Of a DNA stretch of 64,000 nt, positions 29,656 to 64,000 are shown piece by piece; the first letter of the stretch is position 1, and the number at the start of each line of letters is the position of its first letter. This stretch comes from Argiope bruennichi. Its lineage: Eukaryota. The notes beneath the pieces were generated by a model that was not told the DNA's origin, did not search any database, and saw only the letters and a list, made by a program, of their open reading frames with translations. Both the position numbers and the translations under genes were made by a program. The DNA lies in NCBI RefSeq assembly GCF_947563725.1, contig NC_079159.1, positions 100,049,559 through 100,113,558 on the forward strand, written 5' to 3'.

Positions 29656-29660
<5 letters not shown>

Positions 29661-29711
<51 letters not shown>
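29661..29711. repeat. (TA)n microsatellite, about 25 units
   Basis: tatata tract. Confidence 0.95.
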
Positions 29712-29713
<2 letters not shown>

Positions 29714-33938: not shown

Positions 33939-34153
33939 ATGTTGCTGACATTATGGGATTTGTATACAATCAATAAGGAGCAATCATTCAGAGTTATATT
34001 TTATGATTTTAAAAGTAAGCATATATTAAATTTTGAACAAAGTCAGTCATACATTGGTAAAGTTTCCAAGCTGTTGAACTCTACATCTGCAGCACAATCA
34101 GTTATTGGGTGCTTTATTAGCCCAGGATTATATTTATCATGTATTATTCTTGG
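33939..34153 (+). CDS. AASDH-like: AASDH/ACSF4-U26 homolog, putative exon 1 (MLLTLWDLYTINKEQSFRVIFYDFKSKHILNFEQSQSYIGKVSKLLNSTSAAQSVIGCFISPGLYLSCIILG)
   Basis: Begins with ATG. IGCFISPGLYLSCIILG parallels the human AASDH N-terminal IGLYCQPGIDLPSWILG as I recall it, and the spacing from the Met is similar. Possible donor gg|gtacga at 34154. The following exons up to 39681 are not resolved. Confidence 0.45.
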
Positions 34154-37100
34154 GTACGAATTGTTTATCAATTATTTTACATTGACATATTATAAAGATA
34201 ATTGTATTTTGCCTTTTCTGAGATTTTGTAGATTAAAAAAAAAATTAACAAAATTTTATACCTTATATTAGTTATGCTCCTTTTACATAGAATTTATACA
34301 GGATTTTTTTCATCAATTGCAATTTTATTAGAAATCATAAATTGTCTGCTAAATAAATTGGTAAAAATTCTGTTGTTATCACATTTTTAATTTTGAGTAT
34401 TGATTATTCAAAAATATTTTATGGTACTTTCAATTGACAAGCAGTTTATTTTTTGAATAATATCAATTTTTTCCAAACTTATTGCGCTTGTTGATTGATT
34501 GAATTTTTGAATTGTAAATTCATAAATAGTTGCTTTTTTTGAATTGTTTAAATCAGTGACCAGAAAACAGTAATTAAGCTTTCTATTACGAGAAAGGATT
34601 TTAACTTTTTTTGTAATTGTGATCATCTTGTTACTTAGCTTCCATTACATATTTATATATATTTATATTGCAGAATAAATTATATAAGGGAAATGTATTT
34701 TATTCTATTTTTACATTTATTTAGTAAAAAAACAAGCTAAATTCTGAGTGATATCATTATTTGCCTGCAATATATCAAAATAAGATAAAATAGCGGGCCT
34801 GAATTGAATTATTACAAAATTCATTTGAAAAATCTTCATTATCTTTAATACTTGTCTATTAATCACATATCAGTGATTTATCTCCAAAAAAGAATAATCT
34901 AAGATGTTATATTTACTGTCAACAGTGATTAAATGCAAAAAAGTCATTAGTGATATGCTAGTCTATGCACTATATTTGCCACTGACATGTGTTTAAGACT
35001 GAAGTTTGCCAATGACATGCAGTTAAACTAACAACCTGTAATCATGTACCTATTTTTTTTCATAAAAATTCTACTGTATGAATAGCAAATCGATTTACTG
35101 ATAATTTATAAATTAATAGTTCCTTAAATATATATATATGCTGGTCCCTTTACATCCCATCCTCCTGGAAAGCTTCGTGGAACAAAATTGTAAACAATTT
35201 ATCTACTAGTACATTGTTTCTATGATGCAGACGATTTTATAATCTGTGTAAATATAACAGGCATCTCAAGGTCACATTTTCTATTTGTCATAGCTGTTAA
35301 GGTGTTACAGTAGTTTTTTGCATAATCCCTCTTGGCGCATGTATTACTGTTTGATCTCTTGCCATTTGTTCTTGATCGTTTGTTCATTTTTACGAAATAG
35401 TGCTAAAGAGTTTGTTTTTTAAGCTCTGCTCATGAATTGCTCTGATGTCAGGAGACAATCAAAGATGGTATCTACAATGCATACAGTTATTTAAGAGAGT
35501 TGGGAGTCATCTAAGAAAATGGTAAAAGTATTGTTTTTACAGATGCAAAAAGTAATTATCAAAATGTTTAGTGTTTCCTACTGAACAATGCAGCAAATTT
35601 CAACAGAGGCAATTATGACAATAGCTGTTAAAGTTATAAATAGTATTTCAATTTTCAAATCACCCAAGTAAAGAAACCCACAAACAAAATCTATTACAGA
35701 CTTGAATGATTTACATAAAAGCATTGAATACCAAACTGTACTAGAGTTTTATAACAGAGGTGAATAATCAGCATTGGTAAAATTAAGAGCTTGCTTAATA
35801 GAAAAAATTAACTTTTCTGGATGCATAGAATCATTGTAGATGATTGAAAAATTTAGGATTTTCTTACAAAATGTGCAAATTTTTAATGAAAGAAATAACA
35901 TTTTTGTTTCTCATATTTTTGAGAAAAATGAACAATGTGAGAAATGATTCATTATCCAGGCCAGTGATATATCTTAATGAAACTTAGGTAAATGCTAACC
36001 ATTCATCTAAATTTATTTGGCAAAGTTCCACTAGCTAAGGAGACTTAAAAGTTGTATTGGGGAAGGAGTCTAGATTGATCATTTGTCATGCCAGATCTAC
36101 TGATCAAGACTTTATTATGTCCACACAACTTGTATTTCAATTAAAAATTACAGTTGACTATCATGAAGTGATGAATAATGAAGTTTTAAAAAAAGTGATT
36201 TCTCAATTTACTAAGAAGATTGGGCAGTGACTGAAAAAAAATGTGTAATGCATGCAATGAAATTATAAGAAGATGACTTTGTTAAATCTAGTGCTGGAGA
36301 GGATGCAATTAAAAGGATTATTATCATTTTACAAGATTACAGTGAAAGCAGTTTTAGAAAAAGATTAAAGAAAGATAAAATGCTTTAAGCTGAGAACTTC
36401 TAAATTAGTGATTTTTATGCTGATACTCCTTTTATTTCTTTCAGAATGAAACATGTAATAATTTACCCTGATGATGATAACTATATTTGAATGTATATGC
36501 ACTTATTTTTTAAATATATGAATTTATTAAATATATGTGCTATTAAAAGTATATGTTTATTAAACTAAAATATATCTTTATTGAACTTTTTTTAAAATTC
36601 AAGATCTTATTTTTGCATAATAGAGTAATTATTCCTGCATATATTGAACCTAATTTTTCATGTTTAGATAGTTTTGTAAATAATTAATATTTGTAATGAT
36701 AATATGTAGATTTTTTAATTGCAAAACTTCTTTTTTTTTTTTTGAAAAAGTGTAAGAACAATTGGCTTAATATATAATGCCCAGCATTTATAATTGTTCT
36801 ACAAGATTTAAAAGTAAAATTTTCATTATTTTTTTAATTTACTGAAAAATATATCTCAAAAGATAAAAAAAAAAAAAATGAATGAAATTATTTGTTTACA
36901 TTGCCATTTCCAATTTTAATGACAAAAATATTTATGCTAAAATATTTATAAAGCCCTTTTTAAAATATCATAAAAACTCATTATGATATTAGTATAGTAT
37001 ATTTTTGTAACATATAAGTTTTCAAATAGTAGCTAGAATATCCATTTTTTTTTTCTATTCCAACTTCTAATTGAAATATACTGATATGGGGAAAAAGTAA

Positions 37101-38459
37101 GATTTGTCGAAACCATGTTAACGGAGAAGGGGAGTGGGAAAATTCTGTGACCTTGAAATGCTATTTTATTTGTACAGACTATAATATATAATTAGTGAAT
37201 TTTCTTTTAGTATTTATTAATTATCAAACACTAGATTTTACCTCTTTTCATTACAGACCTCATCATTCACAATGTAATTGTACTTGTTATTCAGCTTCTG
37301 TATTTAATTAGGTATCTCTATTTTTATTCCTTGAAAGAAAATAGTTATTTGAACTATATAATTTAAGTGTTTTTTTAATTGATCAAGATTATCACAAAAG
37401 CATAGATAAAAATTAGTAAGAAAGAAAGATAAATAGAACTTGTTTGTAAAGAAATTAGACTGTACTCAGTGTTGAGTAATTTGGTTTGTTTAATGTTGTA
37501 ATTGCCAAAGCCTCAAGTTCTGTTGTGCTGCCTCGTCTTGGCAGAAGGAATATTTGTTGAGGATTGCTCAAGGTGTGAAAGCCATTCCACTTTACCCAGT
37601 TAAAGAGAGCTGACACTTGGAGCTAAGTCAGTCTTCTTCCTTGATGCCCTATGTTTTAACCATTTGAAAATGTTCTTTTCTGACTCCATGATTTTGGCAA
37701 TTTATGAATTTATAGAGATGATCTAGCAAAGGTAGACTATCTATGACTAGTAAGAGTTTGAATAACCATCTGTAACTAGTAATTTATAAGTTTATCTTTG
37801 TATTAAGAAGTAAAGGCTGATTTTTAGTTTTACTGAGCTATCAAAATATTAATCCAGGCTCAATTTTTCTTTACAGAATTTTAAAGGTCCAATCTGCTTT
37901 TGTATTTTTGAATGTACAGAAACCCTGTGCTTCCTTGAACAATATTCAAAATTATGTTCCTATTAAAATTATATTAGTTGAAGGATCATTTTTTGAGGTA
38001 ATTTGTTTATTCCATTTTTATGAATTTCAAATGATTATTTATCTTTTTTTTAAAAAAAATATAAGGATATGCTTGCATTTTTAAAACATTAAATATTTTT
38101 ATGCATGTCTGCAAACTTCTCTTAATTGCATTTAATTTAGTAATTGCATTTTCTTAATTATAATTATTTCTAATATTATACAAAACTGCATATTTATCAC
38201 TTTTTTGTAAAATATCTTATATGTTGAAAATTTATAAAATATTGTCATATATGTATTGTACATCATAGAAAAATTTTATTTGAAAATTTAACTTAACATC
38301 TTGAAGTGTATTGAAAATTTATAGCATTTGACAATACTGAGCCAAAAATTTATGCAATTGGTAGATTTATTACTTATTTAACTATTTAGTGACTTTTAAC
38401 TATTTTCATTATTAGCTACCCTTGTCAAACAGTTAGTTCTCTGGGGAAATTGGTTGTGT

Positions 38460-38900
38460 TTACTTTCAATTAAGTTTCTTATGCATAATTTAATGTTCAT
38501 GATTCTGCCGATAACATATTTTTAAGCATTAATTTGTGACAAATATTAAAGCTGTACCTTATATCTTTTATTATGTATGCAATTCCTAAAGAATCAAGTC
38601 TCATGATATCATAATACTATTAAATACTGTCTGAATAATCTATCATTTAATTTCCTTTTACTATAACTTAAGTTCCTTATACTCATATAAACTACATAGA
38701 TATTAAACAGAATCTTTTTTCCTTAGCAAAATGGAAGAAAATCAGGCAATTAAATATTTGGTGCAATAATGAAAATCGTTTTAATTTCAAAACAATAACA
38801 AAATTTATTGTTGGTTGTTGTAAAAAATATTTTTTTAAAGTTATCAAATAAAAAAAAACTGCACAACATTTCTGTTAAAAAACCAAAATTTTAAATTAAA
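38460..38900 (+). repeat. Dispersed AT-rich repeat family, copy R3 (5-prime truncated)
   Basis: catgattctgccgataac, ctcatgatatcataatact and aaaatggaagaaaatcaggcaattaaatatttggtgcaataatgaaaatcgttttaatttcaaaacaataac blocks shared with R1 and R2. Confidence 0.45.
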
Positions 38901-39681
38901 AATAAAAATTAGTACAAAATTTAAAAAATAAAATAAATTATAACAATACTCGTGGGAGTTTTCACAGAAAAATGCTAAAATAATTAAAAATTGCTAATTT
39001 CTAACTAATTAAAATTTTGAAAAACTTGCTCTAAGTTCCACATTATCAATTTCCAAATATGATGTTTCTGTCAATTTATAATATTAAATTTATTTTGAAA
39101 CTGATTTTATTAATTTCTTTGTTAGTAACTAATTTTTTTTTCTCTTTGAAATATGAATGTCAAAATATGATATGAGGTTTTAAGGGATGTTATTTTTACT
39201 TATTAGACTTATCTACAAATTAATATATTGTCTGTTTTTTTATTTATTAAATTTTTTTTTTCAATTTATGTACCTTTATACTTTAAATTTGACATAATAA
39301 ATAATAATATAGTATATTGCTTTCATGAATTCAATATTTAAAATAACATGAAAAGAAAATGTCATTGCTTTTTGGAAGTGTAAATTAAGATGTTGATGTA
39401 GAAAATTTTATCTTTTGATTTATTTATCATCCATATTAGATTTTATAATTTTTTTCCTGTTAAATAATAGTATCTTATTATATAAAATTCTCCAATTTAT
39501 GATACTCTATAAATATCAGATATCACCCAAGGATAAGATTATATTACATATGCTCTTTTTAATCTGTTTGATCATTAATATGTTCTGCATTTTCTAAAGA
39601 TAATAATTTCAAATAATATATGGTTAAATTCAAATGTTTTGATTTTATATTATTATTATAAGGATGAATATTTCTTTGTAG

Positions 39682-39932
39682 ATAGTAAAGAAAGACCTGT
39701 GTACTTGCTGGCATGAAGAAAATAAAATTCTGTTAGATAACTTTTCAATAATTATTCTCCAGTCATCAAATTGCTTCAATGACTTGTGTTCTAATTCAAA
39801 GAAAATCTATTCAAATTTTTTGAAAAATGTTTCTGAATTGGCTTATGTAATTCAGACATCTGGTACAACTGGAGAACCAAAGATTATACAAGTGCCTCAC
39901 AACTGTATTGTACCAAATGTTTTAGATCTGAA
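39682..39932 (+). CDS. AASDH-like: AASDH-like exon carrying the adenylation-domain core motif A3: …KNVSELAYVIQTSGTTGEPKIIQVPHNCIVPNVLDL(K)
   Basis: AYVIQTSGTTGEPKII parallels human AASDH LAYVLHTSGTTGIPKIVRVPHKCIVPNIQ and the ANL-superfamily motif (Y/F)xxYTSGTTGxPKG. Donor aa|gtaagt at 39933. The 5-prime boundary is ambiguous: the acceptor is at 39680-39681, or in frame at 39761-39762. Confidence 0.75.
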
Positions 39933-41497
39933 GTAAGTATTTCATTTTTGTAACTATGTCATGCATAACTATTATTATGGTTTTTTTTATTTAATAGCTT
40001 TGTACAAATAAAGATAATACTGTTGAAATATATCTAGAGTTTATTTTAAAAAATCAGTATTCCTATTTATGTAACATTAAATCATGCGACCTTAAATTTC
40101 ATATGGGAATTAAGGGCTTCAAAATTTAATTTAAAAAAATCTGATAATCTTGATGTTATAAAGTCTCTCAAAAATTTATTTTTTAAAGAAATTAATTGTG
40201 ATATAAAAGTAATTCTGTAGTTTGAATATTTATAACATATAATTATAAATTGAAATCATTTGCCAAAATTCAGAAAATTAATAAATCCCTAATAAATATC
40301 TTTCATAAAATAATGAATATCTTCAAATAAGATTACAATAGTTTAATAATGGCCATGAGCACCGACTGGTGATAATTTTTATGTATTTTTATTATATTAT
40401 GGATTTAGTTATTTGATATTTCAAGCAACATTAAATTGATGACCTCAAGACAATGTGATCCATAGACTGTTAAATTTAAAATTCATTTGTTTTTCAAACA
40501 TTAACCTGTGAAAAATGATTTTGATATATATATCCAGTATATTTCCATGTATAATAGAAGAGTTTTTGGAATTTCTATGGGGAGGGCTTATATATGTATC
40601 TGGTAATCTCACAAAAACATTGATACATTTTAATTAGCTGGGCCTAAGTGATGAATTGCTGAAAATCGTAAAATATAGTTTATTTTATTTCTATTGTTTA
40701 TATTTCTTAAGAAAAATTCATTTTAAATTAAATGAGTTATTGTGCCTTTGAAAATGAATTTTTTTACTTTTTAAATTATGATTTCTGTTTTATTGTGGTG
40801 GATAGAGAGCTTATAAAGAAAGAATGAGGATCCATGCTGCTATTAGACTACAAAGACTATTACTATAGTTTGAAATTCACCATATAAGAATTTTTCTTCT
40901 CACTTATCTTTCAAATAAAAAATAAATGGCATAGAAAATAAAACTAGCGTAGATTATAAGCAAGATTGTAATGAATGGGAAAAAAGTTAAAATTATCATC
41001 ATTGGTATCATTTCTGATTTATTTTATAGCATCATGATTGGAAAATGTTCCACCTGTTTTACATACCGAGCAATATTTTCACCCTCATGGTGACATACTT
41101 GAAAGTCACAGGATTACTTTTTAAAATTTAATTTCGTCTTATATATGGGTTTTGAATTTAGGTAAATTTTTGAAGAAAAAAATTTTCTTAATGTATATAT
41201 GAATAAGATTATATTAGAAAATATATGATATATTTAATATTTTTTAATCAAAGATTTTATTAATAATCAATCATTTTATTTCTTCCTTATTTATCTTTGA
41301 AAAAAAAAGGCCAGTAAGTAGGTTTAGTAAAGGCCAAGATTATTTTTGCATTTTTTGAAGAAATATACCTATAATGCATTTTAAAATGTATATTAATTTA
41401 CCTTTAAATATATATGTGCAAGTTATCTATGTATATATGTATGTGTTATCATACTTTATAATTAACCATATTTTTATTTAACCTATTTCTCTTTTAG

Positions 41498-41687
41498 ACG
41501 AAAATTCAATATTACTTCAGAAGATAGAGTGATGTTATGCTCACCATTAACGTTTGATCCTAGCATTATTGAAATCTTCCTTGCTGTTTCAGCTGGCTGT
41601 ACTTTGATAATCATACCTAATCAGTTGAAAAGTATCCCAAGAAAACTCAGTGAAGTCATCATTAATAGCAAAGTTACTGTACTTCAG
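41498..41687 (+). CDS. AASDH-like: AASDH-like exon, A4-A5 region: (K)RKFNITSEDRVMLCSPLTFDPSIIEIFLAVSAGCTLIIIPNQLKSIPRKLSEVIINSKVTVLQ
   Basis: Acceptor ctcttttag. TFDPS motif. Parallels human FDITQEDVLFLASPLTFDPSVVEIFLALSSGASLLIVPTSVKLLPSKLASVLFSHHRVTVLQ. Donor cag|gtagat. Confidence 0.85.
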
Positions 41688-41986
41688 GTAGATAACAATT
41701 CAAAAAATACAACTAAAACTATAATTTGACTGCTGTTTTGTAAAGTAACAAAATTTTCTTATATAATAGTTAAGAAAAAAGATTTAAAAAACATTTTATT
41801 TTCTTAATAGCTCCATGTACCAGATTTTTCTGAGAAAAATGTAGATTATTTTTAAATATCTTTTATGATTTTTGTAAATGGCTTTTTTTTCCTCCTTAAA
41901 ATATTTCTTTGTTATTTTGTTTGGGTTTTCTCTTTCATTTTTTAAAATTTGTATTTATTTATTTTACCCTTTTTTTTAATTTCTAG

Positions 41987-42213
41987 GCTACTCCAACTCT
42001 TATTCAGAGTCTTGGAGATGATTTTATAAAAGGTGTTCTTTTATCGGAGAATTCTAATTTACGAATTTTGGCTTTTGGTGGTGAACCTTGTCCTTCCATA
42101 GATAAAATAAAAAGGTGGAAAGCTAAAAATAATAAAACAAAAATTTTTAACCTTTATGGATTAACAGAAGTTTCTTGTTGGGCAACATGTTTTGAAATAA
42201 ACTTAGAAAAAAA
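41987..42213 (+). CDS. AASDH-like: AASDH-like exon: ATPTLIQSLGDDFIKGVLLSENSNLRILAFGGEPCPSIDKIKRWKAKNNKTKIFNLYGLTEVSCWATCFEINLEK(K)
   Basis: Acceptor ttctag. FGGE and YGxTE adenylation motifs. Parallels human ATPTLLRRFG…LRVLALGGEAFPS…IFNVYGITEVSSWATIYRIPEK. Donor aa|gtaagt (phase 2). Confidence 0.85.
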
Positions 42214-45200
42214 GTAAGTGAAATAACAAGATTATCCATTGTTCAGTTTTAATTAATATAGGATTGATGTGAAAATTATTAAAAAAATACTTTTCAACTT
42301 TAATAATTGGAAAAAGTAGAAGAATTAATATAATAATTAGGGGATTTTCCAAATCAGCTAATTAGTATACTGATTCTACCAATTTCTACAATTATTATTA
42401 AATATTTATAAGCCCCTTTCCAATTCCTAGTTACTCTGACCAACCTTAACACACTTAAATCAAGTTACTTTCCAAATAATAGAGATGCTTGAATTTAAAT
42501 TTATCTTTATGTTAAGTATTTTTCATGATTGTCTATATATTTTGCAGGTAATATAGTTAAAACTTACTTGAAATAATTGAACTTTTTAAAATGATTTGAC
42601 ATATTCCTTGTATATGAATAAAATATGATTGATTAATTTTGCTTAGTTGTAATGGAGCAATTGTAAACTTTTTGAAAATTTGATTACAAGTTACTGTGTT
42701 ATGTAATGAAGTAATTGTAGCTGCATATTTTATTCAATTTCATATAAAGAATTTGCCTTTATTTTTTTTATTTGAATGGCAATTAATAATCTTAGGAATT
42801 TTGAGACTATAATGAAACAAAATAACTGCTATTGTGCATTTTGTTGATGTTGGTACCAGAAATGATTTGTAAACCTCACATTAATTATTGACTCATTTGT
42901 GTTCCTTTGCCTTCTTTGAATTAAACCTGTGAAAGTGCATTCTTCAAAACTTTCTTGTAAATTTTATAATAAAGATGATATCTCAGAGAACATCTTGAAT
43001 GGTATTTGCATATAATAGTTATGAAATAATAAAAATTTGACATGGCTTTAGCATTTTTTTTAAATCTGAGCTATCTTTCATGGGTTTTTTGGTAAAGAAT
43101 CCTTTGCATGCAGTTAATAGTATTCGAAAATCAAATTTTTGTTTTTGATGGGTTTTTCCTAATAAATTGAAACAAAAATTTAACACACTACTAGAGTTGT
43201 GGTCATAAAATTCCATACCAAGTTTTGTTTTTGAATTATCTTATTTACATTTTTTTAAAATTACAGTCTGACAGATGGTCAACCATTTGTTGGATTTGGC
43301 TCAAAATTTGGTAGGTGTCTGTACTAAAAATGTTAAATTTGTGTACCGAATTTTGTCTTCTTTCTTTGATTTGTAGTCATTCTATTAACTTATATTTGAA
43401 CAGCTGGACAGACAGGTTTTGCCTGAATGGATTTTACACAAAATTTGATAGAAATCTATAAATTAGGTGTAAAAACCATGTGCAAAATTTCATCCATATT
43501 CCTCAAAGTGTTTTTGAGTTATCTTTGTGACAGACAAACAAACAGACAAGTATGACACCAAAAATGTATTTTTTGAACTCAGAAAAATCTGAAATGTTGA
43601 GATTCATCAAAATCTTGAGTTTGAATTTTTTTGATGATTACAGTACTTTCTCTATACTTGTTATATGAAAAACTAAAAAGTTATGTTTATGGCTTAAATT
43701 AGATTGTGGTTAAAATATATATTCCTAATTTAATTTAGTTAAATTTTAGCTACTCTTTTGTTTTTCATATTCAGAATTTTTCTGTGATTCATTTGAATAT
43801 GGGATTCTTATGGATCTGTTTATGGTCTGTTTCAAGTTTGTTTTAGAAAATAAAATATTATATTCTTAAATTGAAAGAAAAAGTTAAACTTGGTAAGAAT
43901 TCTGTATGGTCCTTTGAAAAGAGATCCTCTCTTTGCAAAATCCGGAGTTTACTAAATGCCATCGTTTGCCATTGAGCATATCGTGTTTAGTTGTATTAAA
44001 TGGAAATTTTAGTTAAGAATGTGTAAGAAATCTATAACGTTTTTATTATGCCCTTCAAAAATTTCATGATAATTTTCAAAACTTTTCTACATTTCAAACT
44101 GTAATTAAAATATTCTTGATATATGATATGTATATTCTATAAAGTGAAGACCCTAAATTTTCTTTTTGAAGGGAAAAAAAAACTAACTAACCTACTTTCA
44201 AATTTAGTTGAAATTTTAAAATAATATATCAAGAAGTAGTATGTCTTAGTGATGCTGGCCTAAGACCCTTCTGAAATTAAAGTATAAATAAATTTACACA
44301 AACAAATATTATCTTATTTGTACTTTGGATATAGTTAATTTAAATGATATTCAACATCTTTTCCTCGACTCTTTTTATTAAATCTTATTGCAACTGAAAA
44401 GTGTTCACATATAATGAATTTTATGTGGAGGAATTTGTGCTCAGAATAATTAATTGTATGATGTCAAATATTTATAAGGATTAAATTATAAGTTTGTAAA
44501 ATGCTTGTAATGATTTGATCTCAAGTACAGTTTCACATATGAAGTAATTTTTTTCTTTGTTGCACATGCCATTTACATTAAAGTAATGATATTGTTTTTA
44601 ATATATTTAAGTACTAACTGCCTGTGGTGACCAGTTGGTTTGACTAAAATATAGACTGTACTTGATTTTATGTAAATCTCTGATGCATAAATTACTATTC
44701 AGTATCAAATTACAGAGTATTCAGTTCAGTAGAGTATTTTTATTTTAAGATAATTGTTTAATTAGCTTTATTTTAGGTGCTTGCATCTACCCAGCTGTTT
44801 GTGTGCATGAACCTACCTAATAAAGTTAAATCACATGTCCAAATCTTATGAAAATTGTAAATGTCTGCATGGTCCATCATTTAGTTCAACTTAACCTGAT
44901 CTAGTATTGTATCTTCATTTTCTCATTTCTCTTCAAATTGGTAGGGCATAATTTAGATATATTATGTGAGCATATTCAGTAGAACTTTATTTGCGCAATC
45001 TAATCAAAAAATTAAAGAACAATAAATATAACCATTCAGCATAGCAATTTTATTTTGTGGTAAATTTGATGTTATAGTGTGCTATATTTTTAGATTCCAT
45101 ACACACAAAAAATGGTATAATTAAAAATGGAACTTTTGAATTTTAAAATTATATATATATATAAACGACTATAACTGAATATAATAGTTATAAATTAATT

Positions 45201-45230
45201 TTAAAGAACTTATTTGTTATAAAATTAAAG

Positions 45231-45310
45231 GTACCATTTGCCATCTATTCCTTTGGGTGAACCTCTTTTGGATACAGTTATTGAAATCATTGATGGTGAA
45301 CTTTCTGTGG
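45231..45310 (+). CDS. AASDH-like: AASDH-like exon: (K)YHLPSIPLGEPLLDTVIEIIDGELSV(G)
   Basis: Phase is consistent. IPLGEPLLDTVIEIID parallels human LGFPLLGTVVEVRD and the A-domain PIGxPxxNT motif. Donor tgg|gtaagc. Confidence 0.75.
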
Positions 45311-46872: not shown

Positions 46873-47262
46873 GAGGAGAAAAGAGATGGTGTGTGATCAA
46901 TGATGAAGAATGGCCAAATCATAAACATAAAATTATGCGTAAAACAGGAGATTATGTTATTCAAAATTCTGAGAGTTTATTATATTTTGAAAGTCGAAAA
47001 GATAATATTTTGAAGTTCAAAGGACAAAAATTATCATTATTTAGGATAAATACTATTCTTGAGAGTATTCCTAGAATCACAAATCATTTCTTGAATTTTG
47101 ATGCTGAATCTTCAAAGCTTCTACTATTTGTTGTTCTGAATGAAAAAAGCAGTTGCAAAGAAGATATAAGATATGAAGTATTGAAAACTCTCCAACAGTC
47201 TACTTCCAATCTTCCTATAATTGAAGTGATAATTGTGCCTTGCATTCCTTTAACAAAGCATG
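46873..47262 (+). CDS. AASDH-like: AASDH-like exon, A8-A10 region: (G)GEKRWCVINDEEWPNHKHKIMRKTGDYVIQNSESLLYFESRKDNILKFKGQKLSLFRINTILESIPRITNHFLNFDAESSKLLLFVVLNEKSSCKEDIRYEVLKTLQQSTSNLPIIEVIIVPCIPLTKH(G)
   Basis: Acceptor t15ag at 46871-46872. RKTGDY parallels the A8 motif (Y)RTGD. IPLTKHGKAD is completed across the splice and parallels A10 PxTxxGKxDR. Parallels human MRATGDFVTVKDGEIFFLGRKDSQIKRHGKRLN…LPFTSHGKID. Donor catg|gtatta (phase 1). Confidence 0.85.
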
Positions 47263-49185: not shown

Positions 49186-49301
49186 GAAAAGCCGATTACA
49201 ATAAATTGATTGCACTGAAAAATTCAAGAAATCAGCTGAGAAAATTGTACCAGTTCACTTCTAATTTGGATGTTTTGAATACTCTATCTAACTTGTGGAA
49301 G
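49186..49301 (+). CDS. AASDH-like: AASDH-like exon: (G)KADYNKLIALKNSRNQLRKLYQFTSNLDVLNTLSNLWK
   Basis: Acceptor ttttcag. Continues IPLTKHG|KADYNKL, parallel to human HGKIDVSELNKIYL…LWKST. Donor aag|gttaga. Confidence 0.75.
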
Positions 49302-52967: not shown

Positions 52968-53443
52968 AATTATACTTCTCAAGAAACAGTAACACAAACA
53001 GATAATTTTATTCTGAGTGGTGGTGATTCTTTCATGGCTTTACAACTGACATCAGATATTGAATGGGAATTTCAGATGCAACTACCTGAAATTACAGATA
53101 AACTTTTAAATTATTCATTTAGAGATGTGTATGAACTTATAAAATCTCATATGCAAGACACACAAGAAATAAATGTTGAATCTCAGAATGCACTTGTTCC
53201 CTGTAATGAACTGTCAAATGAATCTGCTCCAAAGAAAACACGCCTTATTAGTTCCGTGTGTTTTGAAGTTGTAACTAGAAGAGGTTATTCCTTAATATGC
53301 CAACATGACAAGGTGAAGTCTTGTTACTCCAAAACAATCAATAATGATTTATTCAGCAGTAAAGAATTGTCTTTAAAAATGACCTGTAAATTTGACCTGA
53401 AGAAATGTATAGATGCATCACCATGTGTTGCATATTTTTTTGA
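52968..53443 (+). CDS. AASDH-like: AASDH-like exon encoding the phosphopantetheine-carrier (PP-binding) domain and the start of the beta-propeller: NYTSQETVTQTDNFILSGGDSFMALQLTSDIEWEF…KCIDASPCVAYFF(E)
   Basis: Acceptor ttattacag. FILSGGDSFMALQL is the carrier-protein serine-attachment motif (F.LGGDS / GGHSL) and parallels human FLNSGGDSLKSIRL. KCIDASPCVAY parallels human GKCVDASPLVV. Donor ga|gtaagt (phase 2). Confidence 0.85.
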
Positions 53444-54757
53444 GTAAGTCTGCTCTATTTTTCATATATATTTGCATTATTGTCCGTGTAGATGAGTATT
53501 AGTGTGGCGTCTTCCACTCAGAATAAAAAACAAAAATACTTTGAAAAAAATGTAACTTAAACAATAATGTGTAATAATAAAAATAAATTATATAAGCAGT
53601 ATCAAAACTTTATTTAAATCTAAAACATACTTAACAAATCTATCAAAAATCTCCTTCAAAATAATAAAAACAGTCTGATACTTATAGAAACCAATGATTT
53701 TAGAAATCTCTGCAAACATTTCTTTTGATTGTGTTTAGGAATTTCTATAACTGAGATTATAAATACATTTCGTTTCTCTCAAGTTCTATGGCAAACTTTG
53801 CTTTGGATTAGAATTAAATTGAATTTTTTTTTCTTCAAATATGTCAGTTCATCTATCAGTGCTTCATAGAATATTGCTTATTCCATGAAGCACATCCTGT
53901 TTTGCAATTACTGCTCTTTTACTTTTTCAGTACTTTAAAAATGATTTATTTATATAATTTTAACCCTCCAAGTATAGTGAGAATTTAATTATTTTCAATT
54001 ATAGTATATTCAGTTGCAGTTGGCATAAAGTTTATCTCATACCATTGAAGAATTTTTAAAAAAATTCAACAAAAATTTGAAGCAATTAAAAAAAAACCCA
54101 TCAAAAACCATTATGAAGCCAAATTTTTTAATTTAGACATAAGAATAATTGATAACTTATAGATCACCATAAATGATTAAAAAAAAACAATTTGAATTTT
54201 TCTTTCAATATTTTCAGTTTAATTGCTATATTTATTCATGTATATAAATACCAAATGCTCTTACAAAAGCATTTAATTTAAATTAGTTAATATTTTTAAA
54301 TATCAGTTTTAAAAAAATTAAATATTACTGCAAAATTTCCTCAAAAATATATTTACTCCCTCTCTCCAAAATATTCTGTTATTTTCTTTGCTTTTGTTCT
54401 GATGCTCAATCATTACATTTTTAATGGGATTCATTTCAAACTTGCTTCTCTACTTTTGATGCTAAGAAGTTTGAAATATTTTTTTTCCAAATCTAAGAGG
54501 TATTTATTATATAATCTGCATAGTTCCTTGTGATATACCTTTGTGTTTTTGTTCCTTTGTTTTGATTTAATTTTTTTCTGGTTTTGAGGGGGAGGGAGCT
54601 GTAAAAGACCGATTCCTCTTGATAGTAATAACCTATAAAATATTTTCTAGAGTTATTATTTTTAATTTTGTTTTGTATTTGATTACTTAATTTTTTATTA
54701 TATTTTTTGTATTGCTTTCTCAATTTTTGTTATATGTATAAATGTTATTATTTTTAG

Positions 54758-54909
54758 GAGTAATGAACTATTGGGTTTTATTGGTTCACATGCAGGTATA
54801 TTTTGTTGTTTTAATGTATTGGATTCCTCTCTTAAGTGGACTGTTAAACTTCCAGATAGAATTGAATCTTCATCATGTTTATCATTTTGTGGAAAGTATG
54901 TTTATGTTG
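54758..54909 (+). CDS. AASDH-like: AASDH-like exon, PQQ-like beta-propeller blade: (E)SNELLGFIGSHAGIFCCFNVLDSSLKWTVKLPDRIESSSCLSFCGKYVYV(G)
   Basis: Acceptor tttttag. LPDRIESSSCLSFCGKYVYVG parallels human LGDRIESSACVSKCGNFIVVG. Donor g|gtaagt (phase 1). Confidence 0.85.
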
Positions 54910-56292
54910 GTAAGTTTTTCTGTGATGAGGTAGTGTTTGTTAAAGTTCATTTTGATTCTAAACAGATTTTATTAAAAATGGAAACATTTATTTTATTTAC
55001 TTTTTGTAAATTTCAGGTAGTAGAATTATGCAATAAGGGGCTAACTTTAAAAATCTATGTTTTTATATATGTGTTTTTGTGGAACATTAATAAAAAATTC
55101 TAATTTTATATTTACTAAAATTACCTATTATATTATTACTTATTGTCTGGTATGCAATGACTTACATGTGGTTTATATATATTTGTGTGTATGTGTGTGT
55201 GTGTGCGTGCATGCACTTTTAAAAGCAATTTTCTTTAGTAATTCTGAAATCAACAAAATAGTGATTAGTTCTTGATTACATTATTTCAGCTGTTTATGCA
55301 TCTATATTCCATCTATTAAAGATTATTTAAAGATCTTATGTGTGATTTTGTTAACAATAAGTTTTCAAAAAAGTTACAGCAAAATAGAATACTATAAAAA
55401 TTATAGAATAATTATTATTAATTGTAGAATAATTATTATAATTATTATTAATATAATAGAATACTATAATACTATAATAATACATAATTACTATAACTTA
55501 TATACATGTATGTGATTTTGCTTATATTATAATTGAGGGTACTTGATATTACTTATGTTATAATTGAGGGGCATCTGTTTATATTCCTGCAAGATGTATA
55601 ATTCAGCATATAGTATTCTTTATGTATCTTCTTTATTTTATAGAGTAAGGCACTTACTGGTAAATTATCTTGATAGAAAGAGAGTAGCAAATGGATACAA
55701 TTTTGCTATATAAAATCAATTCCAAAATACACATTTGAAGATACAACTGATTTTGTTAAATATTATATAAAAGCCTGCATTTTCAAAAAAATTGTTTTGT
55801 AAATAGTCTTTGCAATGGATTAAAGTTAATTTAAATTTGTAAAGCAGTTTACTGACACATTAGGGCAATTTGTAGTTGTGAACCAAAAATTTATAAATCT
55901 GTGATTGGTTTCTAATTGCATAACTGTAACCAGAGAAATAAAGAAAATATTAAATATTCATAATTGGTATTTGCATTTTTTTTTCTTTTTTTCTTCTTGT
56001 TTTGATTTACCTAGATAAAGCTTCAAATTGAATTTATTTTGAAATGTGTAATGATTTTCAAAAAATTACTTACCAGGCCCACAGTTTAATTACACATCAG
56101 CTACAAACTATAAATTTGAACTATTATAATCTATTATTGATGATGAGACATTGTGAAAACTATCTTGCATAAAACATCAAATTTTCTGATAAATTAAAAC
56201 AGGGTTATTGAACATCTCTTTGAAATTATTTTAGTTGATATATTAGTCTCTAAATAAATAAACCATCAAATTTATAATTTCTTACATTTTAG

Positions 56293-56453
56293 GATGCTAT
56301 GATCATCATCTGTATTGTCTAAATGTTAAAGATGGGAGTATTTTGTGGCTATTCAGTTCAACTGCTGAAATTAAAAGTTCACCCGTTGTTTCATCCCAAA
56401 ATACTGTGTTTGTAGGCTCTCATGATAAACATCTATATGCAATAAATGGGGAA
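56293..56453 (+). CDS. AASDH-like: AASDH-like exon, propeller blade: (G)CYDHHLYCLNVKDGSILWLFSSTAEIKSSPVVSSQNTVFVGSHDKHLYAINGE
   Basis: Acceptor cattttag. Parallels human GCYNGLVYVLKSNSGEKYWMFTTEDAVKSSATMDPTTGLIYIGSHDQHAYALD. Donor gaa|gtaagt. Confidence 0.85.
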
Positions 56454-58433
56454 GTAAGTATGTTTAAAAAAATTGTATTGTAATTTATATAAGATCATAT
56501 ATGAGATTCATTAGATTCTATAAATATAGGATTATTAGCTGTTAAATTATCCTAAATAATAAGCAAAGATATGAAGTAAAATGTTTATGGTTCAGTGTTC
56601 GATTCATTTAAAAGAATTCTTGGCTTGGTGTTTATAATAATTGGACATTAATCTCATGAGAAAGTATATATTCTGCTATATTTAGTATATTTTTAAATTT
56701 ATATTTTCATTCCCTTAATTTTAAGTTTAAACATATGGATGAGGGATGAATAGACAGTCCTCTGCTAAGAACTTTTCTGCTGAAAAGCCTAATATTTGTC
56801 CAAAAATGCCAGAAATGAACCTCCAGTGATAAGCAAATGATTGCATTCTCTGTTGAATAATTTCATCTAACAAGTAAGTGGATAGTAGTGCATATCACAA
56901 GAAACATGGAAGATAAAACTTTCTGAAACCACTTATGAATAAATACAAACACATGAAATTATTTTCCTAATTTGCAAAGACTTTGTGGCTTTATGTGGCG
57001 CTATTCAACACTGGAGACCAAATTAAATTTGCATTGTTTCTTGCTGACCTTATATACTTTCATATGCAAGTAGTGTCACTGGCATACATGGCGTCTTCAA
57101 ATATAATGTTTCACACAACTAAAACAGTATATGAGTGGCAAAAAGAACACTGAGATGAATTCATAATATTGCTCTAGCCTCCCAATTCCCTGATTAAAAT
57201 CCATCTGACAATCACTGGTCTTGAATGAGATCACCATGATCATAATGTTTGATCTTTAGTTCAAACTCTTCCCCTCCCACTTACACACACTCTCCATATG
57301 TTTCAATTGCTTTAGAGTCAGTATAGCTCAATAACCTTGTGACAACTTTCCAGCATCTTGTCCCTTTGCAGCCAGTAGGCTGCTGTATGTACCAAACATG
57401 TGAGTATCTCTAGATATCAGTTTGTGGTCCCATTAACATTACTAAAATGTATGGAAATAAAATTATAAAACTTTATTAATTCATTGTAATTAATTCATAT
57501 AAGTGTGAGCAGTGTATTGCAGTTATGCAAAATGTGAAGTCCAAATAATCTGAAAAAGTTTCTTTAATACTGTTGTTGTTGCAAATAATAAAATGGATGA
57601 CATGCAAATAATTTTTTCTTGCAGTGAAAAAAAGTGTATTAGATAATAAGTGGATTTTTTTTTTTATCAAGAACTGGGAACAAAGAAAAATAAGAGTATG
57701 AAAATAAAAATAAAAATTTTATGAAGATTTCATTGAATTTTGGTGAAGCACTAACCACTAAACCACCAAGCCTCACATAATTTCTATTTTTGTTAATTAT
57801 TTTCCTTTTATATTAAAAATGCTTCAATAATATTTACATGAAACATATTTTTTTTTGCGGTGGTATAGCAAGTATAAATGGTGCGTAGTGAGAATGTAAT
57901 TTTTTCATTTCTTCTATCACATTTAGCATTCAAAAGTTAAATAAGACTCTAATGTTTCTTCATTGCTTAGTTTGTCAGTTACAAACTAATTGTCCATAAC
58001 TACTGCAACATCTGCTACATTATAACATTCGTTTGAGACTAATAAGACAAATTTGATGTCCAAAATGAATGCATGAGGATGGCTTCACTGTGCTATTGAT
58101 TTGTGCTTAACATTATATTTTTAATTGTGATTAAAACTTGTTAATTGTAATTTTATACTAAAGCTAAATATTATTTTATCTAGTTTAATAATTACATATT
58201 AAATCATTCATCAATGATAATTTATTATAATTAATGTATGGAAATATTTTGCTTTGAAACATAATGAATTTTGATATATATATTAAATGATGCTTAAAAA
58301 GAAAAACATATTCTAAACTGATTGCATATTTTTTTTGTTATATTTAATACTTGAAATTATTTTTACCTATCAATTTAATGTGTCAAACGGAAAAAAAATA
58401 CTGTGTACAAAATTAAATGTATCACTTTTACAG

Positions 58434-58559
58434 AATGGAAAACTTATTTGGAAAAAGACAATTGGCAAAGGAAGTATTTTTTCTTCTCCAGCTCTGCTTG
58501 AAGAATCTGGAATTCTTTCAGTTGCAACTTTAGATGGCATTCTTTCTATTTTAAAAATG
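58434..58559 (+). CDS. AASDH-like: AASDH-like exon, propeller blade: NGKLIWKKTIGKGSIFSSPALLEESGILSVATLDGILSILKM
   Basis: Acceptor ttttacag. Parallels human KCVWKSKCGGTVFSSPCLNLIPHHLYFATLGGLLLAVN. Donor atg|gtttgt. Confidence 0.8.
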
Positions 58560-60240
58560 GTTTGTATACTTGTAGACAAAAATATGTCTACTTTCCTTCC
58601 TACATTTATGTTTATTTTTCTTTCAATAAATACTAATTAATGTATTTTGTTAACTTCATAAAAGTAAATTCATTTTTTTCTTAAATATGAAGCAGCAAAA
58701 TTAGTTTATTCAGGGAAGTCTTTTGTAATTTTTAAAAATATATTGTGTCATTTATTTTTAAAATTTATTGTTTATAATATAACACTGCAGTGAATAATGT
58801 TTTTGAAACTACCACAGATGTATAGAATTAATTGTGAGAATGGGTAAGGTGCTTATTTTTTTGTGGGGAAGGAAGGATTTGATCTTCTGTTTTTGTGATA
58901 CTTTTGCTGATAGTTTTCTAGGAAATATTTAACATAAATTTTGTATGAATTATATTTGTATTATATTAAGTGTTTAATCAAAATTAAAAGTGCTTAATCT
59001 AAGGTTAAAGTGATTAAGACACTTTATGGACTACTAGTACAAAAATTCTTCTGTTATTTCTATTGTAAACTCTATTGTTTACAAAAATTCTTTACTTTAA
59101 ATTTTATTATTTTTTTTATCATGAAATTCATTTTTAAGAAAAAAAAATATAGCTACATTTTAGATTTTAATTTAGAATTATTGTTGTGTATTTGTTGTTA
59201 TCTAATGGAATCTAAAATATGAGACTTTCATTTCTAAATTGTATTTTTTTCATCAAATATTTAATGGAACTTTTTAATATAACTCATCTTTTAAAAAAAA
59301 ATGTATTACTTTCCACATTCTTAAATATGAAATTGAAAAAGCCTTTAACATTATCAAATATATTTGAAGAAAAATTTTCCCTTTGTGAAAAACATATCCT
59401 TGCAGAACAAAGCTTATCAAATCTTATCATTTATAAAAAACAGAACAAAGTAAGATTTAAGTTGGGATTAACTTTGCAAATAACTGTATGCAAATTTTAA
59501 TTAATGGGAAGCAAAGTTAAGAAAATAGCTATTTTTGGAAGAAGTATGTAATGAAGAATGCCATTTTCATACATATTAATACAAAACAGTGCATATTTAA
59601 ATAATATTCTTTCACAAAATAGAACTATTTCAATACCAGTAACTTCATAAAATCCTATAAATGCCTTAAACATCTCAATAACTTTTTTTCTTCTGCTAAA
59701 TTTCTCCATAACTTTTTTTTACTGTCCTTTACCTTGCAGCTGAACTATATTATTAGAATTAGTTTTGTTAACTCTTTTAATATTAATCCTTTTTCAATTG
59801 AACTGGGGCTTGGCATTTTTCCAAGTTTGCAATAATTATTTACTTTTTTGGTTGATCTTGTTCTAAAGTAGAGATTTTGTTTAAGCATTTTTATATGCTT
59901 ATTAACTATTGATTCTTTGCTTTGTAAACCACTAGCTTGTTATCATCAAGGACATCAATTTCTAAATTTGACAAAACAGGCAGCTTGATCATTTTTCAGG
60001 CTCATTCTTTTAAACAAAATGGACAATTATTATTATTATTATTATTTGTATCATATTCTAAAATGAAAAAGTATTTGAAGCAAGAAAGGGAGATAAAGAA
60101 TTTCATAGCTTCATATTCTCATACATGCATGTATTATTATATTTAATTGTTGCATTCATGTTTGTATCATATTCAGTTTTAATTGCATATTATATTCTCA
60201 AATATAATATTTTTCCTTTCTTTTTTGTATGTGTATTAAG

Positions 60241-60372
60241 GATACTGGTACTACTGTTTGGACCTACAGTTATGGAAAACCATTATTTTCCTCTCCATTA
60301 TTTACTACTTCAGGAATTTTTATTGGTGCCACAAATAATTGTTTTTTGCATTTTAATTTATCTGGTATATTG
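60241..60372 (+). CDS. AASDH-like: AASDH-like exon, propeller blade: DTGTTVWTYSYGKPLFSSPLFTTSGIFIGATNNCFLHFNLSGIL
   Basis: Acceptor gtgtattaag. Parallels human PATGNVIWKHSCGKPLFSSPQCCSQYICIGCVDGNLLCFTHFGEQV. Donor ttg|gtaagt. Confidence 0.85.
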
Positions 60373-63300
60373 GTAAGTAAATTATTTTTTAAAATATTTT
60401 ATATCTTGTTCCAATTTTTTTAAAACTGATTTTGTATTATTAATTTCTTATTATTAATATTTCTTTTATTAACATAAATACATAAATATGCTGTACCCTA
60501 AATGTAAATATGTGTATAGCTTTTTTTTTTATTATTTTTTTACAATTTATGAATTGAAATGATTGCATATATTAATACCAGCTGGTATGCATACTTGTAT
60601 TTGCAGAATAAATTTTAAAGAAAAAGTTTATTTTACACAATTTCCATATTTATTTATTTTCTGTATGCTAATCTTATTTACCTTAATTTTCATTGATATT
60701 TCAAATTTATGAGTTAATTTGCTAATAAATTAACTATATAATATTTTGCATTTTCTATTTTATACCATGTCAACCTTTCGATTTATAAATATGGGATATA
60801 ATTAGTGGCAAAAAATAACTATTACATACAGATGAATTTGTTTATTCAAGACTTAAATATATATTTAAATATGTTTAGAAATTTGCTGTTACTTTGTGCA
60901 ATATTTTATAAACATTCGTGTTGCAATAGGTTATATCCAATTTCTAATGATGCACAAAATTTTCACAATAAATTAAAATGCATTAAAAGCATTTTTTTAA
61001 AATAATTATTCTGAATTGCCATTCTTGTTACTAAGTATATTGAATTTCAATATACTTATAAATTAGAAAAAATAATAAAAAAATCGTCAAGCATTGAAAT
61101 AAATCAAATGAAAGTTATGAAAAAGGAAATACATTTCAAAATATAAACAATCAAGCTGAAAAGAAAATTAACTTAAATATTAAAGAATTTATTAAAGAAT
61201 CTCAAAACTTTGTTTTCAAAATAAATTTCTGTGGCATTTTTGATAACTTCATAGAATAATAAATCTAATATTTCTTAATAATTTTGGAATTCTATATTTA
61301 CACTTATATTTTATCCCTTTGCGTTATTTATTAGTTGGCACTTCTTTTAATAAATGCAATATAAGAAATTGAGAGCATCATTTAAATTGAGTCCATATTT
61401 AACTATATTTTCTTGTTTACTTGAGAATAGTTAATATAATTTGCAATAGAAAAATAATCCCACTGTTTCAGTTAACCTTGCTTATGACATTCTGCTATGT
61501 AATGTCAGAAAAAAATGTTTTATGTAAGTAATTTCAAGAAATATTATAAAGAACTTTTTAAATGCTTCTAAATTTTATTGATTAAGTAGTAATCCTAAGA
61601 TATAATATGTTTTAAAGAAATCCATTTTTTTTTCAAAAAAAAATAAAAAAATGCATGAATTAATCTTTTTGTACTGTTTGCTTTTATCATTTTTAGACTT
61701 TCTTTTCTTTCTTTTTTTTTTTTTAATCATCAGGTGACCAAATTTGAGATGGTAAATCTAATTATATCATTGAGCTATCTAATCTTAATAATTGTGTGGT
61801 GGTAAATGTATTTATAAAAGTTAAAAAAATTTTTATATCTAAAAGATACAAATACATTGATGCTTTAGAAAAATGTATTTTCATAAATCAGTTTATAATG
61901 ACAGAAATTATGTTAAAGGTTCATTGAGAGCTTCACTACTTCTTTATAGATAATAAATTTAAAGACATAATTTTCATTCAGGATGTCAACAATTCCTGGC
62001 CTTGGGCCTATTAATTTTGAAAAAAAAAAAAAAAAAAAAAAAAAACCATATATTTTTCTTTTTTTATTTAATTAAAAATACTATTTTTAACCATGAAGAA
62101 TGCAGTTTTTTTAAAATGAATTATATCTTTGCCTTAATTTTTTATGATTAGTATAGAATGAGGGTGAAGTAGAGAGTAATTAATAAGTTCCTCGCTTCAA
62201 ATAAGCTGCATGTTAGAAAAGGCCCTGGGGGGTCTGGACATTAATCTTTTTCGGCATAAGTTATCAAAATTTTTGAACAATAATGAAAAAGCTCAATGAA
62301 TAGAGTATTTGTTGATCTAAACATAGATTTTAATGTAAATTTTTTTCTTTAAACATTATGTTCCCTCCTCGGGGGTGAGGTAGATCTCTTTTAAGGATAC
62401 TGCTCATCTAAAGCAATCGATTTGTAAGAAAATCTTCACAGTTGAATTCCTTAAATTTCTTAATAGAGTTATGATATCTTTGGTTCTTAAATACTTTATT
62501 TATACTCTAAGAAATTTAAAATATTAAAAATACACAATCGTATATATTTTCTATAAAAATTATTCTAATTCAATCTAATATATGTAAATTGAGTAAAATA
62601 TTTATTTCAGTTTAATACACATATTAACAAAAAAATTAAAATCTACAAAATAAGATTTGCAAAAAATTATCATTTATTGTATTTGAACTATTAAAATTCA
62701 AAATATTTATGAAACTTTAAAAATATTAAATAAAAAATGATAAAAATTGAAAGTCTCATTATTTCATATGAAATGTTTAAAGAGGGTGGTAATATCTATT
62801 TGCTTCACAGATAAAATGATCAAAGTTTTGCATATTGAATATATTTTCTATACAAAATTATACTTTTCAAACATAGAAATGAAAGATTTTGTTAAGCTCA
62901 AGTGTCCCCATGTGAGGATATCTTTGAAATAAATTTTTATGCCTTCTGAAAGGAAGTTGAATCTTATACAAAATTATGAATTTATGTCTCAAGGATATTG
63001 TAGAAGTAAAATCTATTGATTTTTTTTAGAATTTTAATTCTTAAGAAATTAAAAAATTACCATATTGAAGACCAAAAATTGTGATATTTTAAGTCTAAAA
63101 TTAGTCCCATGAAGAAATTATATTTTTTGTACTATTTTTTTAATTAATCTCTCAATCTTTTTTAATTTTTTCTTTCTTTTTTTGAAAATTGATGATTTTT
63201 TCCCCTTCTTTTTTTGTAACGATTATATCAGAAGGAATTAACACTAATATAGTACTTTATGTTTTCCAAAAATTTTTTAATGTGATAATAGTAAATTTCA

Positions 63301-63793
63301 AAAATTTAATTTGTTAACATGTTTTATCTGTATAATAAATCTCATAATATAGCTTACTAAAATATGGATCTAATATTGAATTTATATAGCTTTAATGTTA
63401 CTGAGCAAGAATTGAAATCATCACTACTTTTTCATTTTTGTTGTTATTCATCCCTACTTTATAAAAGTGAAAACTCTTTTTCCTTTTTTGAAACATTATA
63501 TTTAATTTTTAAAATGTAAGCATCTTAGATTTTAAAAAGAGATGAGATTTAAAATTCATTATAAATTTATTCACCTAAAAATATGATTCTAAATTATTTG
63601 AACTTTTATACGTTATGTTATATGCTTTTCTAGTCTTAAAAAAAAGTGTTTCTGGTCATTTCATTTTACATTATTGCATTTTTAAAACTAATTTTTTAAC
63701 TTTAAACAATGTAACTATAATCACAATTTATTTGGAGCTCCACATTTTTTGCATTATATTTGTGACTGATCTTTTTAAATATACTTTCATTTC

Positions 63794-63908
63794 CAAAATT
63801 AAGGGCCCAAACATAAAATCTGTAAAAACTGATGGAACTATTCACTGTACTGTCACAAAATCTGGCACAGAGATATATTACAATGGGAGAAAGAATATAG
63901 CAACATAA
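63794..63908 (+). CDS. AASDH-like: Candidate distal AASDH-like exon, or part of one: GPNIKSVKTDGTIHCTVTKSGTEIYYNGRKNIAT
   Basis: Acceptor ttccaaaattaag. TDGTIHCTVTKSGTEIY resembles human C-terminal STDGKVWILESQSGQLQSVY. The real 3-prime boundary is unknown: the ORF runs to a stop at 63908 and no donor is identified. One or more exons in 60373-63790 are unresolved, and the gene probably continues beyond the window. Confidence 0.3.
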
Positions 63909-64000
63909 TAATATGAAAAAGATTTTAATTGTGAATTAAGAAACAGGATATATGAAAAAGTGTTAAATCATGAATCAGAGATAAAGCATTTCTCTCAGAA

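Follow-up and report, generated by a model that had tools for sequence, protein, structure and literature searches.

Among the animal monomodular proteins that resemble nonribosomal peptide synthetases (NRPS), PMC11869996 counts ACSF4-U26. In the accounts of the vertebrate enzyme given in PMC10531068 and PMC4882622, it activates beta-alanine with ATP and moves it onto thiols, independently of pyrroloquinoline quinone (PQQ) (Drozak et al. 2014, FEBS J 281:1585); citing the same study, both accounts add that it may act in a post-translational modification. Here we analyze a 64,000-nucleotide stretch of the genome of the wasp spider Argiope bruennichi (RefSeq assembly GCF_947563725.1, contig NC_079159.1, positions 100,049,559 to 100,113,558 of the forward strand; this whole stretch is hereafter the window). 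Judged by sequence, this AT-rich region (27% G+C) very probably carries the A. bruennichi ortholog of AASDH/ACSF4-U26, the 'beta-alanine-activating enzyme', which is single-copy among the matches listed in our searches. An earlier examination of the bare DNA letters (the sequence-only reading) had made the same ortholog call, and it is borne out by an exact spliced match to a RefSeq protein, by the order of the Pfam domains and by the named relatives.

The spider protein shares with vertebrate ACSF4-U26/AASDH the order of an adenylation domain, a carrier domain and a Beta-prop_ACSF4 propeller, and aligns with it at 33-35% identity over ~90% of its length, with the core catalytic residues all identical; the inferred substrate pocket shows conservative substitutions at 1-3 of its 10 positions. 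It is ~100 residues shorter (1004 vs ~1100-1125 amino acids, aa), chiefly in the A2-A3 region and the linker between carrier domain and propeller, and AMP-binding_C (PF13193), which is listed for many bird orthologs, was not detected in it. A much closer relative is the 'Beta-alanine-activating enzyme' of Araneus ventricosus (contig BGPR01002406.1), with 81% protein identity; the gene spans 27.0 kb in Araneus vs 31.8 kb in Argiope, and EMC1 is its tail-to-tail downstream neighbor in both, in Argiope at a position outside the window. Bacterial NRPS adenylation-thiolation modules (LgrA, TycA, GrsA-PheA and DltA) have the fold, motifs A3-A10 and the GGxS carrier site in common with the spider protein, and the didomain sequence matches reach E = 1e-40. 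Unlike them, the spider protein is without a condensation, epimerisation or thioesterase partner domain, and its gene is eukaryotic, intron-rich and single-module, with a propeller fused at the C-terminus. Drosophila Ebony offers an analogy, being likewise a single-module animal NRPS-like protein with a beta-alanine-activating adenylation-carrier didomain and no classical condensation domain (PMC10531068). Whereas Ebony ends in a small amine-selecting domain (an atypical condensation domain), the spider protein ends in a PQQ-repeat beta-propeller. Ebony was reportedly the subject of studies by Richardt et al. in 2003 and Izore et al. in 2019.

Gene identity and exon map

To derive the exon map, we searched for donor/acceptor pairs that yield an exact copy of the database protein. 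Residues 1-879 of the RefSeq "beta-alanine-activating enzyme-like" protein (XP_055949085.1 / XP_055949086.1) proved identical, at 879/879 positions, to the translation of 13 spliced plus-strand exons between 33939 and 60372, which total 2637 bases with zero mismatches; each of the 12 introns allowed one GT...AG solution only. Because the 13 exons join via these unique pairs into an open frame that reproduces 879/879 of the database protein, a chance match is excluded. The top match of the protein search was beta-alanine-activating enzyme-like isoform X2 [Argiope bruennichi] (XP_055949086.1), and the longer isoform X1 has 1004 aa (XP_055949085.1 / KAF8774452.1). The features of the gene are as follows:

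33939-34153, plus strand: coding exon 1, aa 1-72; start codon, A1 (LNFEQSQSY...) and first half of A2 (…CIILG); exact protein match, GT donor at 34154, N-terminus conserved in orthologs
37877-37997, plus strand: coding exon 2, aa 72-112; second half of A2 (ILKVQSAFVFLNVQKP); unique AG/GT solution, aligns to the Araneus locus
39682-39932, plus strand: coding exon 3, aa 113-196; A3 P-loop YVIQTSGTTGEPK
41498-41687, plus strand: coding exon 4, aa 196-259; A4 TFDPS, with the Asp predicted to bind the substrate amino group
41987-42213, plus strand: coding exon 5, aa 260-335; FGGEPC and A5 NLYGLTE; G290, G291, E292, Y316, G317, T319 and E320 invariant in 36 orthologs
45231-45310, plus strand: coding exon 6, aa 335-362; IPLGEP and start of A6 (GELSVG)
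46873-47262, plus strand: coding exon 7, aa 362-492; end of A6, A7 RKTGDY, A8 SRKDNILKFKGQKLS, C-terminal subdomain of the adenylation domain, first part of A10 (IPLTKHG)
49186-49301, plus strand: coding exon 8, aa 492-530; catalytic Lys493 of A10 (codon 49188-49190) and linker into the carrier domain
52968-53443, plus strand: coding exon 9, aa 531-689; carrier (thiolation) domain GGDS with Ser551 (codon 53028-53030), disordered linker, start of the propeller (KCIDASP)
54758-54909, plus strand: coding exon 10, aa 689-740; propeller blade (GSHAG … RIESS) with beta strands in the model
56293-56453, plus strand: coding exon 11, aa 740-793; propeller blade (KSSP … GSHDKH)
58434-58559, plus strand: coding exon 12, aa 794-835; propeller blade (IFSSP)
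60241-60372, plus strand: coding exon 13, aa 836-879; propeller blade (LFSSP); last coding exon in the window, GT donor at 60373
60373-64000, plus strand: first 3.6 kb of intron 13; exon 14 (aa 880-1004 plus stop) follows at about window-equivalent 65350-65727 (L001 41417-41794)

The window thus carries 13 of the 14 coding exons and 87.5% of the coding sequence. Exon 14 (residues 880-1004) was placed ~1.35 kb past base 64000 from a second A. bruennichi assembly (GCA_015342795.1, CM027190.1; locus L001), which is 99.7% identical to the window over 29673-64000 and in which the gene is called; over 24005-29713 the identity is 97.5%. The sequence-only reading had placed both exon 1 (33939-34153) and the 5' edge of the A3 exon (39682) correctly to the base, its exons do join by canonical sites into a single frame equal to the annotated protein, and its span of at least 30 kb agrees with the 31.8 kb from ATG to stop. 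The gene continues past the range 33939-63999 under which it was noted, the last coding exon being beyond the window. An insect or cnidarian guide protein had been proposed for a spliced alignment; the organism is a spider. RefSeq isoforms X1 and X2 agree up to residue 953, beyond which X2 has an ending of its own (…ATTAELFEKIA) and lacks the ~51 C-terminal residues with which X1 completes its propeller; X2 probably represents a minor or aberrant splice product.

RefSeq and GenBank already list this gene for A. bruennichi, and its family is known, so that our results go little beyond confirming an annotation: the gene had been predicted, and the family was characterized biochemically in vertebrates in 2014. 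What is added here is the species, an exon map exact to the base, an exon missed by the sequence-only reading, the exclusion of a GC-rich intronic block as an exon, and the finding of an intact and apparently constrained spider copy.

The missed exon and the GC-rich block of intron 1

The exon that had escaped notice is exon 2 (37877-37997), which codes for ILKVQSAFVFLNVQKPCASLNNIQNYVPIKIILVEGSFFE. Motif A2 spans the junction of exons 1 and 2, with …CIILG contributed by the former and ILKVQSAFVFLNVQKP by the latter. The expectation that A1 and A2 would lie between exon 1 and position 39682 therefore held for the second half of A2, which is in exon 2, and failed for A1 and the first half of A2, which are in exon 1. 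In place of this exon, attention had been drawn to a GC-rich block at 37500-37640, in which the vaguely A2-like peptide LLRIAQGVKAIPLYPVKES is indeed present (37554-37610); exon 2 begins ~240 bp downstream of it. The G+C content is 45% at 37500-37640 and 40-45% over 37450-37750, vs an average of 24% for intron 1.

The block is not an A2 exon. Stops interrupt every frame on both strands, leaving no open frame through it, and it is not present in the RefSeq coding sequence of either isoform. Intron 1 of Araneus ventricosus holds no counterpart, though next to it the region of exon 2 can be aligned, at 80%. Nor did we find a further copy within the window, an Rfam match even at E <= 1, a signal of RNA folding on either strand (z = +0.61 and -0.42), or a Pfam match for its 39-aa frame. 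The candidates of an exon, a minus-strand exon, a repeat within the window and a structured RNA at 37450-37750 were accordingly rejected, on the grounds of the stops, the single copy, the missing Araneus counterpart and the lack of an Rfam or folding signal. The most fitting description is intron sequence specific to the lineage, which may be what is left of an old mobile element present elsewhere in the genome.

Adenylation and carrier motifs

Seven of the nine peptides quoted in the sequence-only reading are contiguous on the plus strand at the expected places: YVIQTSGTTGEPK at 39844-39882, TFDPS at 41550-41564, FGGEPC at 42074-42091, YGLTE at 42155-42169, IPLGEP at 45247-45264, RKTGDY at 46938-46955 and the carrier-domain peptide FILSGGDSFMALQL at 53007-53048. 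An eighth is the peptide of the GC-rich block discussed above. The ninth, IPLTKHGKAD (A10), is non-contiguous in the DNA and arises by the splicing of exon 7 to exon 8 (IPLTKHG/KAD), the codon of Gly492 being split between them. While all the peptides exist, some had been mislabeled: FGGEPC is not A6, as it lies upstream of YGLTE, IPLGEP is not A7, and RKTGDY is A7 rather than A8. In this we follow Marahiel's A1-A10 nomenclature, by which we take YGLTE to be A5, IPLGEP to be a loop between A5 and A6, A6 to be GELSVGGEKR across exons 6 and 7, A7 to be RKTGDY and A8 to be SRKDNILKFKGQKLS.

In alignments of 17 and 36 orthologs, the invariant residues comprise T171, S172, G173, T175, G176 and K179 of the A3 P-loop; F215 and D216 of A4; Y316, G317, T319 and E320 of A5; G387 and D388 of A7; R403, K409 and G412 of A8; G492 and K493 of A10; and G548, G549 and S551 of the carrier domain. 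The carrier motif reads SGGDS, with the invariant Ser551 as the putative site of phosphopantetheine attachment. The ten pocket residues were assigned by motif offsets from the GrsA-PheA numbering and not by structural superposition; so assigned, the pocket code is DPITLFLCWK for Argiope, DPVTLFLCWK for Danio, DPITLLICWK for Podarcis and DPVTLLLSWK for Buteo. The pocket thus appears essentially unchanged from spiders to vertebrates.

Domain architecture and predicted structure

Searches of the 1004-aa product with Pfam models recovered, from N- to C-terminus and as the sequence-only reading had anticipated, AMP-binding (PF00501) at residues 25-358 (126 bits), a weak PP-binding match (PF00550) at residues 535-570 (18.5 bits, below the gathering cut-off of 20.8) and Beta-prop_ACSF4 (PF13570) at residues 674-1000 (373.9 bits vs a cut-off of 133; the match spans positions 1-328 of the 329-position profile). 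A PP-binding score below the threshold is usual in this family, as few relatives among the matches listed carry PF00550 in their precomputed domains. Even a rough concatenation of open frames from the window gave the same order, with 105 bits for AMP-binding, a weak PP-binding match and 226.9 bits for Beta-prop_ACSF4. The top NCBIfam match was TIGR01733, a model of amino-acid adenylation domains, and no condensation, thioesterase or reductase domain appeared in the Pfam/NCBIfam output for the 1004-aa protein.

A sequence search of the PDB aligned the LgrA adenylation-carrier didomain to residues 161-562 and TycA to residues 44-593, both alignments running through the carrier domains of these proteins, while the C-terminus aligned to PQQ-repeat propellers; no solved AASDH structure was apparent in this search. 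We modeled the 960-aa isoform with AlphaFold2 from a 36-sequence alignment, obtaining a mean predicted local distance difference test (pLDDT) score of 84.2. The propeller is predicted as a series of four-stranded blades for which pLDDT is close to 90 or higher, and the sole disordered stretch is the linker between carrier domain and propeller (residues 595-624, pLDDT <50). Foldseek searches with the model retrieved GrsA-PheA (1amu), DltA and other adenylation domains at target-normalized template modeling (TM) scores of 0.74-0.77 (0.74-0.76 for 1amu), and matched multidomain NRPS modules at E near 1e-30.

The four propeller-blade exons named in the sequence-only reading are real (54758-54909, 56293-56453, 58434-58559 and 60241-60372). 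In the model, the strand pattern past residue 680 recurs every ~42-44 residues, which by strand count would give about eight blades. Exons 12 and 13 (42 and 44 aa) correspond to roughly one predicted blade each and exons 10 and 11 (52 and 54 aa) to slightly more, so that the impression of one blade per exon appears approximately right.

The propeller bears on a different reading of the protein, as a true PQQ-dependent 2-aminoadipate-6-semialdehyde dehydrogenase of lysine catabolism whose propeller binds PQQ as a redox cofactor. Kasahara and Kato are said to have proposed such a role in 2003, whence the name AASDH. The C-terminal domain does match PQQ_2 (PF13360, 100.8 bits), and it matches the solved propellers 3hxj and 7eq5, which are labeled 'pyrrolo-quinoline quinone'. 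However, the same propeller models also fit BamB and the sensor domains of kinases, which are not quinoproteins, and the classic PQQ repeat (PF01011) had no match in the spider protein at E <= 0.01. Furthermore, PMC4882622 reports the activity as PQQ-independent, and the accounts in PMC4882622 and PMC10531068 describe the dehydrogenase proposal as never demonstrated. We regard a PQQ-dependent dehydrogenase as very improbable here.

Orthologs, conservation and selection

The relatives listed come from spiders, ticks, a scorpion, a horseshoe crab, echinoderms, hemichordates and vertebrates. Among the 120 matches listed, every informative name is beta-alanine-activating enzyme, ACSF4 or AASDH, the others being uninformative ('hypothetical protein'), and A. 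bruennichi contributes one cluster only. In Araneus ventricosus (locus L002) the ortholog is likewise split into 14 coding exons, with matching positions; 13 of them have the same lengths as in Argiope and the last differs by one codon. Between the two species, nucleotide identity in the exons is 77-84%, whereas most of the intron sequence does not align. The ratio of nonsynonymous to synonymous substitution rates (dN/dS) between them is 0.26 overall, with 0.29 for the adenylation domain, 0.20 for the carrier domain and linker, and 0.23 for the propeller.

These comparisons speak to whether the locus might be a decaying or non-functional copy, as could be supposed from a very AT-rich region with long introns and from a RefSeq isoform (X2) with a truncated propeller. 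Against this, the frame is open across all 14 exons with canonical splice sites, every catalytic residue is kept, the dN/dS value and the near-complete agreement of exon lengths with Araneus are those given above, and it is the exons that align while the introns mostly do not. A pseudogene is thus highly unlikely; by the sequence comparison, the gene is intact and under purifying selection.

Proposed function and remaining alternatives

Taking the protein as the ACSF4-U26 ortholog, the vertebrate biochemistry together with the conserved catalytic and pocket residues suggests the following course. The adenylation domain would form beta-alanyl-AMP from beta-alanine and ATP, and the beta-alanyl group would then pass to the thiol of a phosphopantetheine arm on Ser551, which the animal phosphopantetheinyl transferase (AASDHPPT in mammals) would presumably attach. 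The thioester would in turn be handed to an acceptor without the involvement of PQQ. As a matter of speculation, the propeller might be an acceptor- or partner-binding module that takes the place of a condensation domain.

Several points weigh against this assignment or parts of it. The carrier domain falls short of the Pfam gathering score, the pocket residues were placed by motif offsets, and the final 125 residues are encoded outside the window. The predicted specificity for beta-alanine is taken, by analogy, from vertebrate enzymes with just 33-35% identity to the spider protein. What the propeller does and which physiological acceptor receives the activated beta-alanine are questions for the whole animal family that the spider locus makes no more testable.

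Least probable of all is that the protein is an Ebony-type beta-alanyl-amine synthase or an ordinary acyl-CoA synthetase instead of an ACSF4-U26 ortholog: it does combine adenylation and carrier domains without a classical condensation domain, as in Ebony (PMC10531068), and has weak matches to acyl-CoA ligase models, but its C-terminal 330 residues form the ACSF4-specific propeller (374 bits) and not an amine-selecting domain, the close relatives among the matches listed are all ACSF4/AASDH, and the carrier domain and amino-acid-adenylation signature oppose a CoA ligase. A fungal Lys2-type alpha-aminoadipate reductase was also considered and rejected, as the Pfam/NCBIfam output contained no reductase or NAD-binding family.

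Retaining the beta-alanine-activating enzyme as the identity of the protein, one may ask about roles peculiar to spiders. To our knowledge, the enzymes that make the amide-linked acylpolyamine venom toxins of orb-weaving spiders have not been described. It is pure speculation, and very doubtful, that the spider ortholog might feed an activated beta-amino-acyl unit to such toxins, besides or instead of a role in protein modification; no finding points to it, and the gene appears to be single-copy, to be conserved in non-venomous animals and to have the pocket of its vertebrate counterparts.

Conserved non-coding blocks of the locus

Two further stretches of the locus are conserved between Argiope and Araneus. 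The first is:

32826-33134, plus strand: conserved non-coding block of 309 bp, 0.8-1.1 kb upstream of the ATG; 77% identity over 329 columns to the corresponding position upstream of the Araneus ortholog; indel lengths not divisible by three

Within this block lies a 60-bp core of nearly perfect identity (…ATTATTTAAATTGAAATCAAATTCAAATTTGAAAT…), and from its position and conservation the block may tentatively be seen as the promoter or a 5'-untranslated-region exon of the AASDH gene. The second, a 160-bp block in intron 13 (63580-63739), shares 76% identity with Araneus intron sequence immediately before the last exon. An open frame of 109 aa overlaps it, for which Pfam gave no match; the block may represent either an alternative exon or a conserved element of the intron.

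Surroundings in the window

No nested genes are evident in the introns among open reading frames (ORFs) of at least 60 aa on both strands, and a transposase-like fragment at 36039-36227 has no Pfam match. The tandem repeats in 28000-64000 are short AT-rich arrays only, and neither ARAGORN nor Rfam at gathering thresholds detected tRNA or other RNA families in the whole window.

Upstream of the AASDH gene and divergent from it (head-to-head, ~6 kb apart) lies, at 26039-27985 on the minus strand, an intronless ORF of 648 codons that belongs to the MAP65/ASE1 (PRC1-like) family of microtubule-bundling proteins (Pfam, 316 bits) and is called as a gene in the second assembly. This ORF accounts for the local rise in G+C and the strand skew at 26-28 kb. 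As a single-exon gene in an intron-rich genome, it could be a retrogene.

The remainder of the window holds mobile-element debris. A run of broken ORFs at 20328-21598 on the minus strand has the appearance of a decayed hAT transposon; one of the ORFs matches the C-terminal dimerisation domain of the hAT family (27.7 bits). Short plus-strand frames at 8750-9091 and 10540-10812, which contain …RLRIGHTYFTHKPLL… and …PRWPGGKVLASEPESFRFE… respectively and have no Pfam match, recall, as an impression only, retrotransposon- and repeat-derived peptides of arthropods. Finally, inverted copies at 15541-16175 and 16616-17242, which are ~440 bp apart and 93% identical over 637 bp, probably represent a mobile element with long inverted arms, and a related 200-bp fragment is found at 7772-7974.

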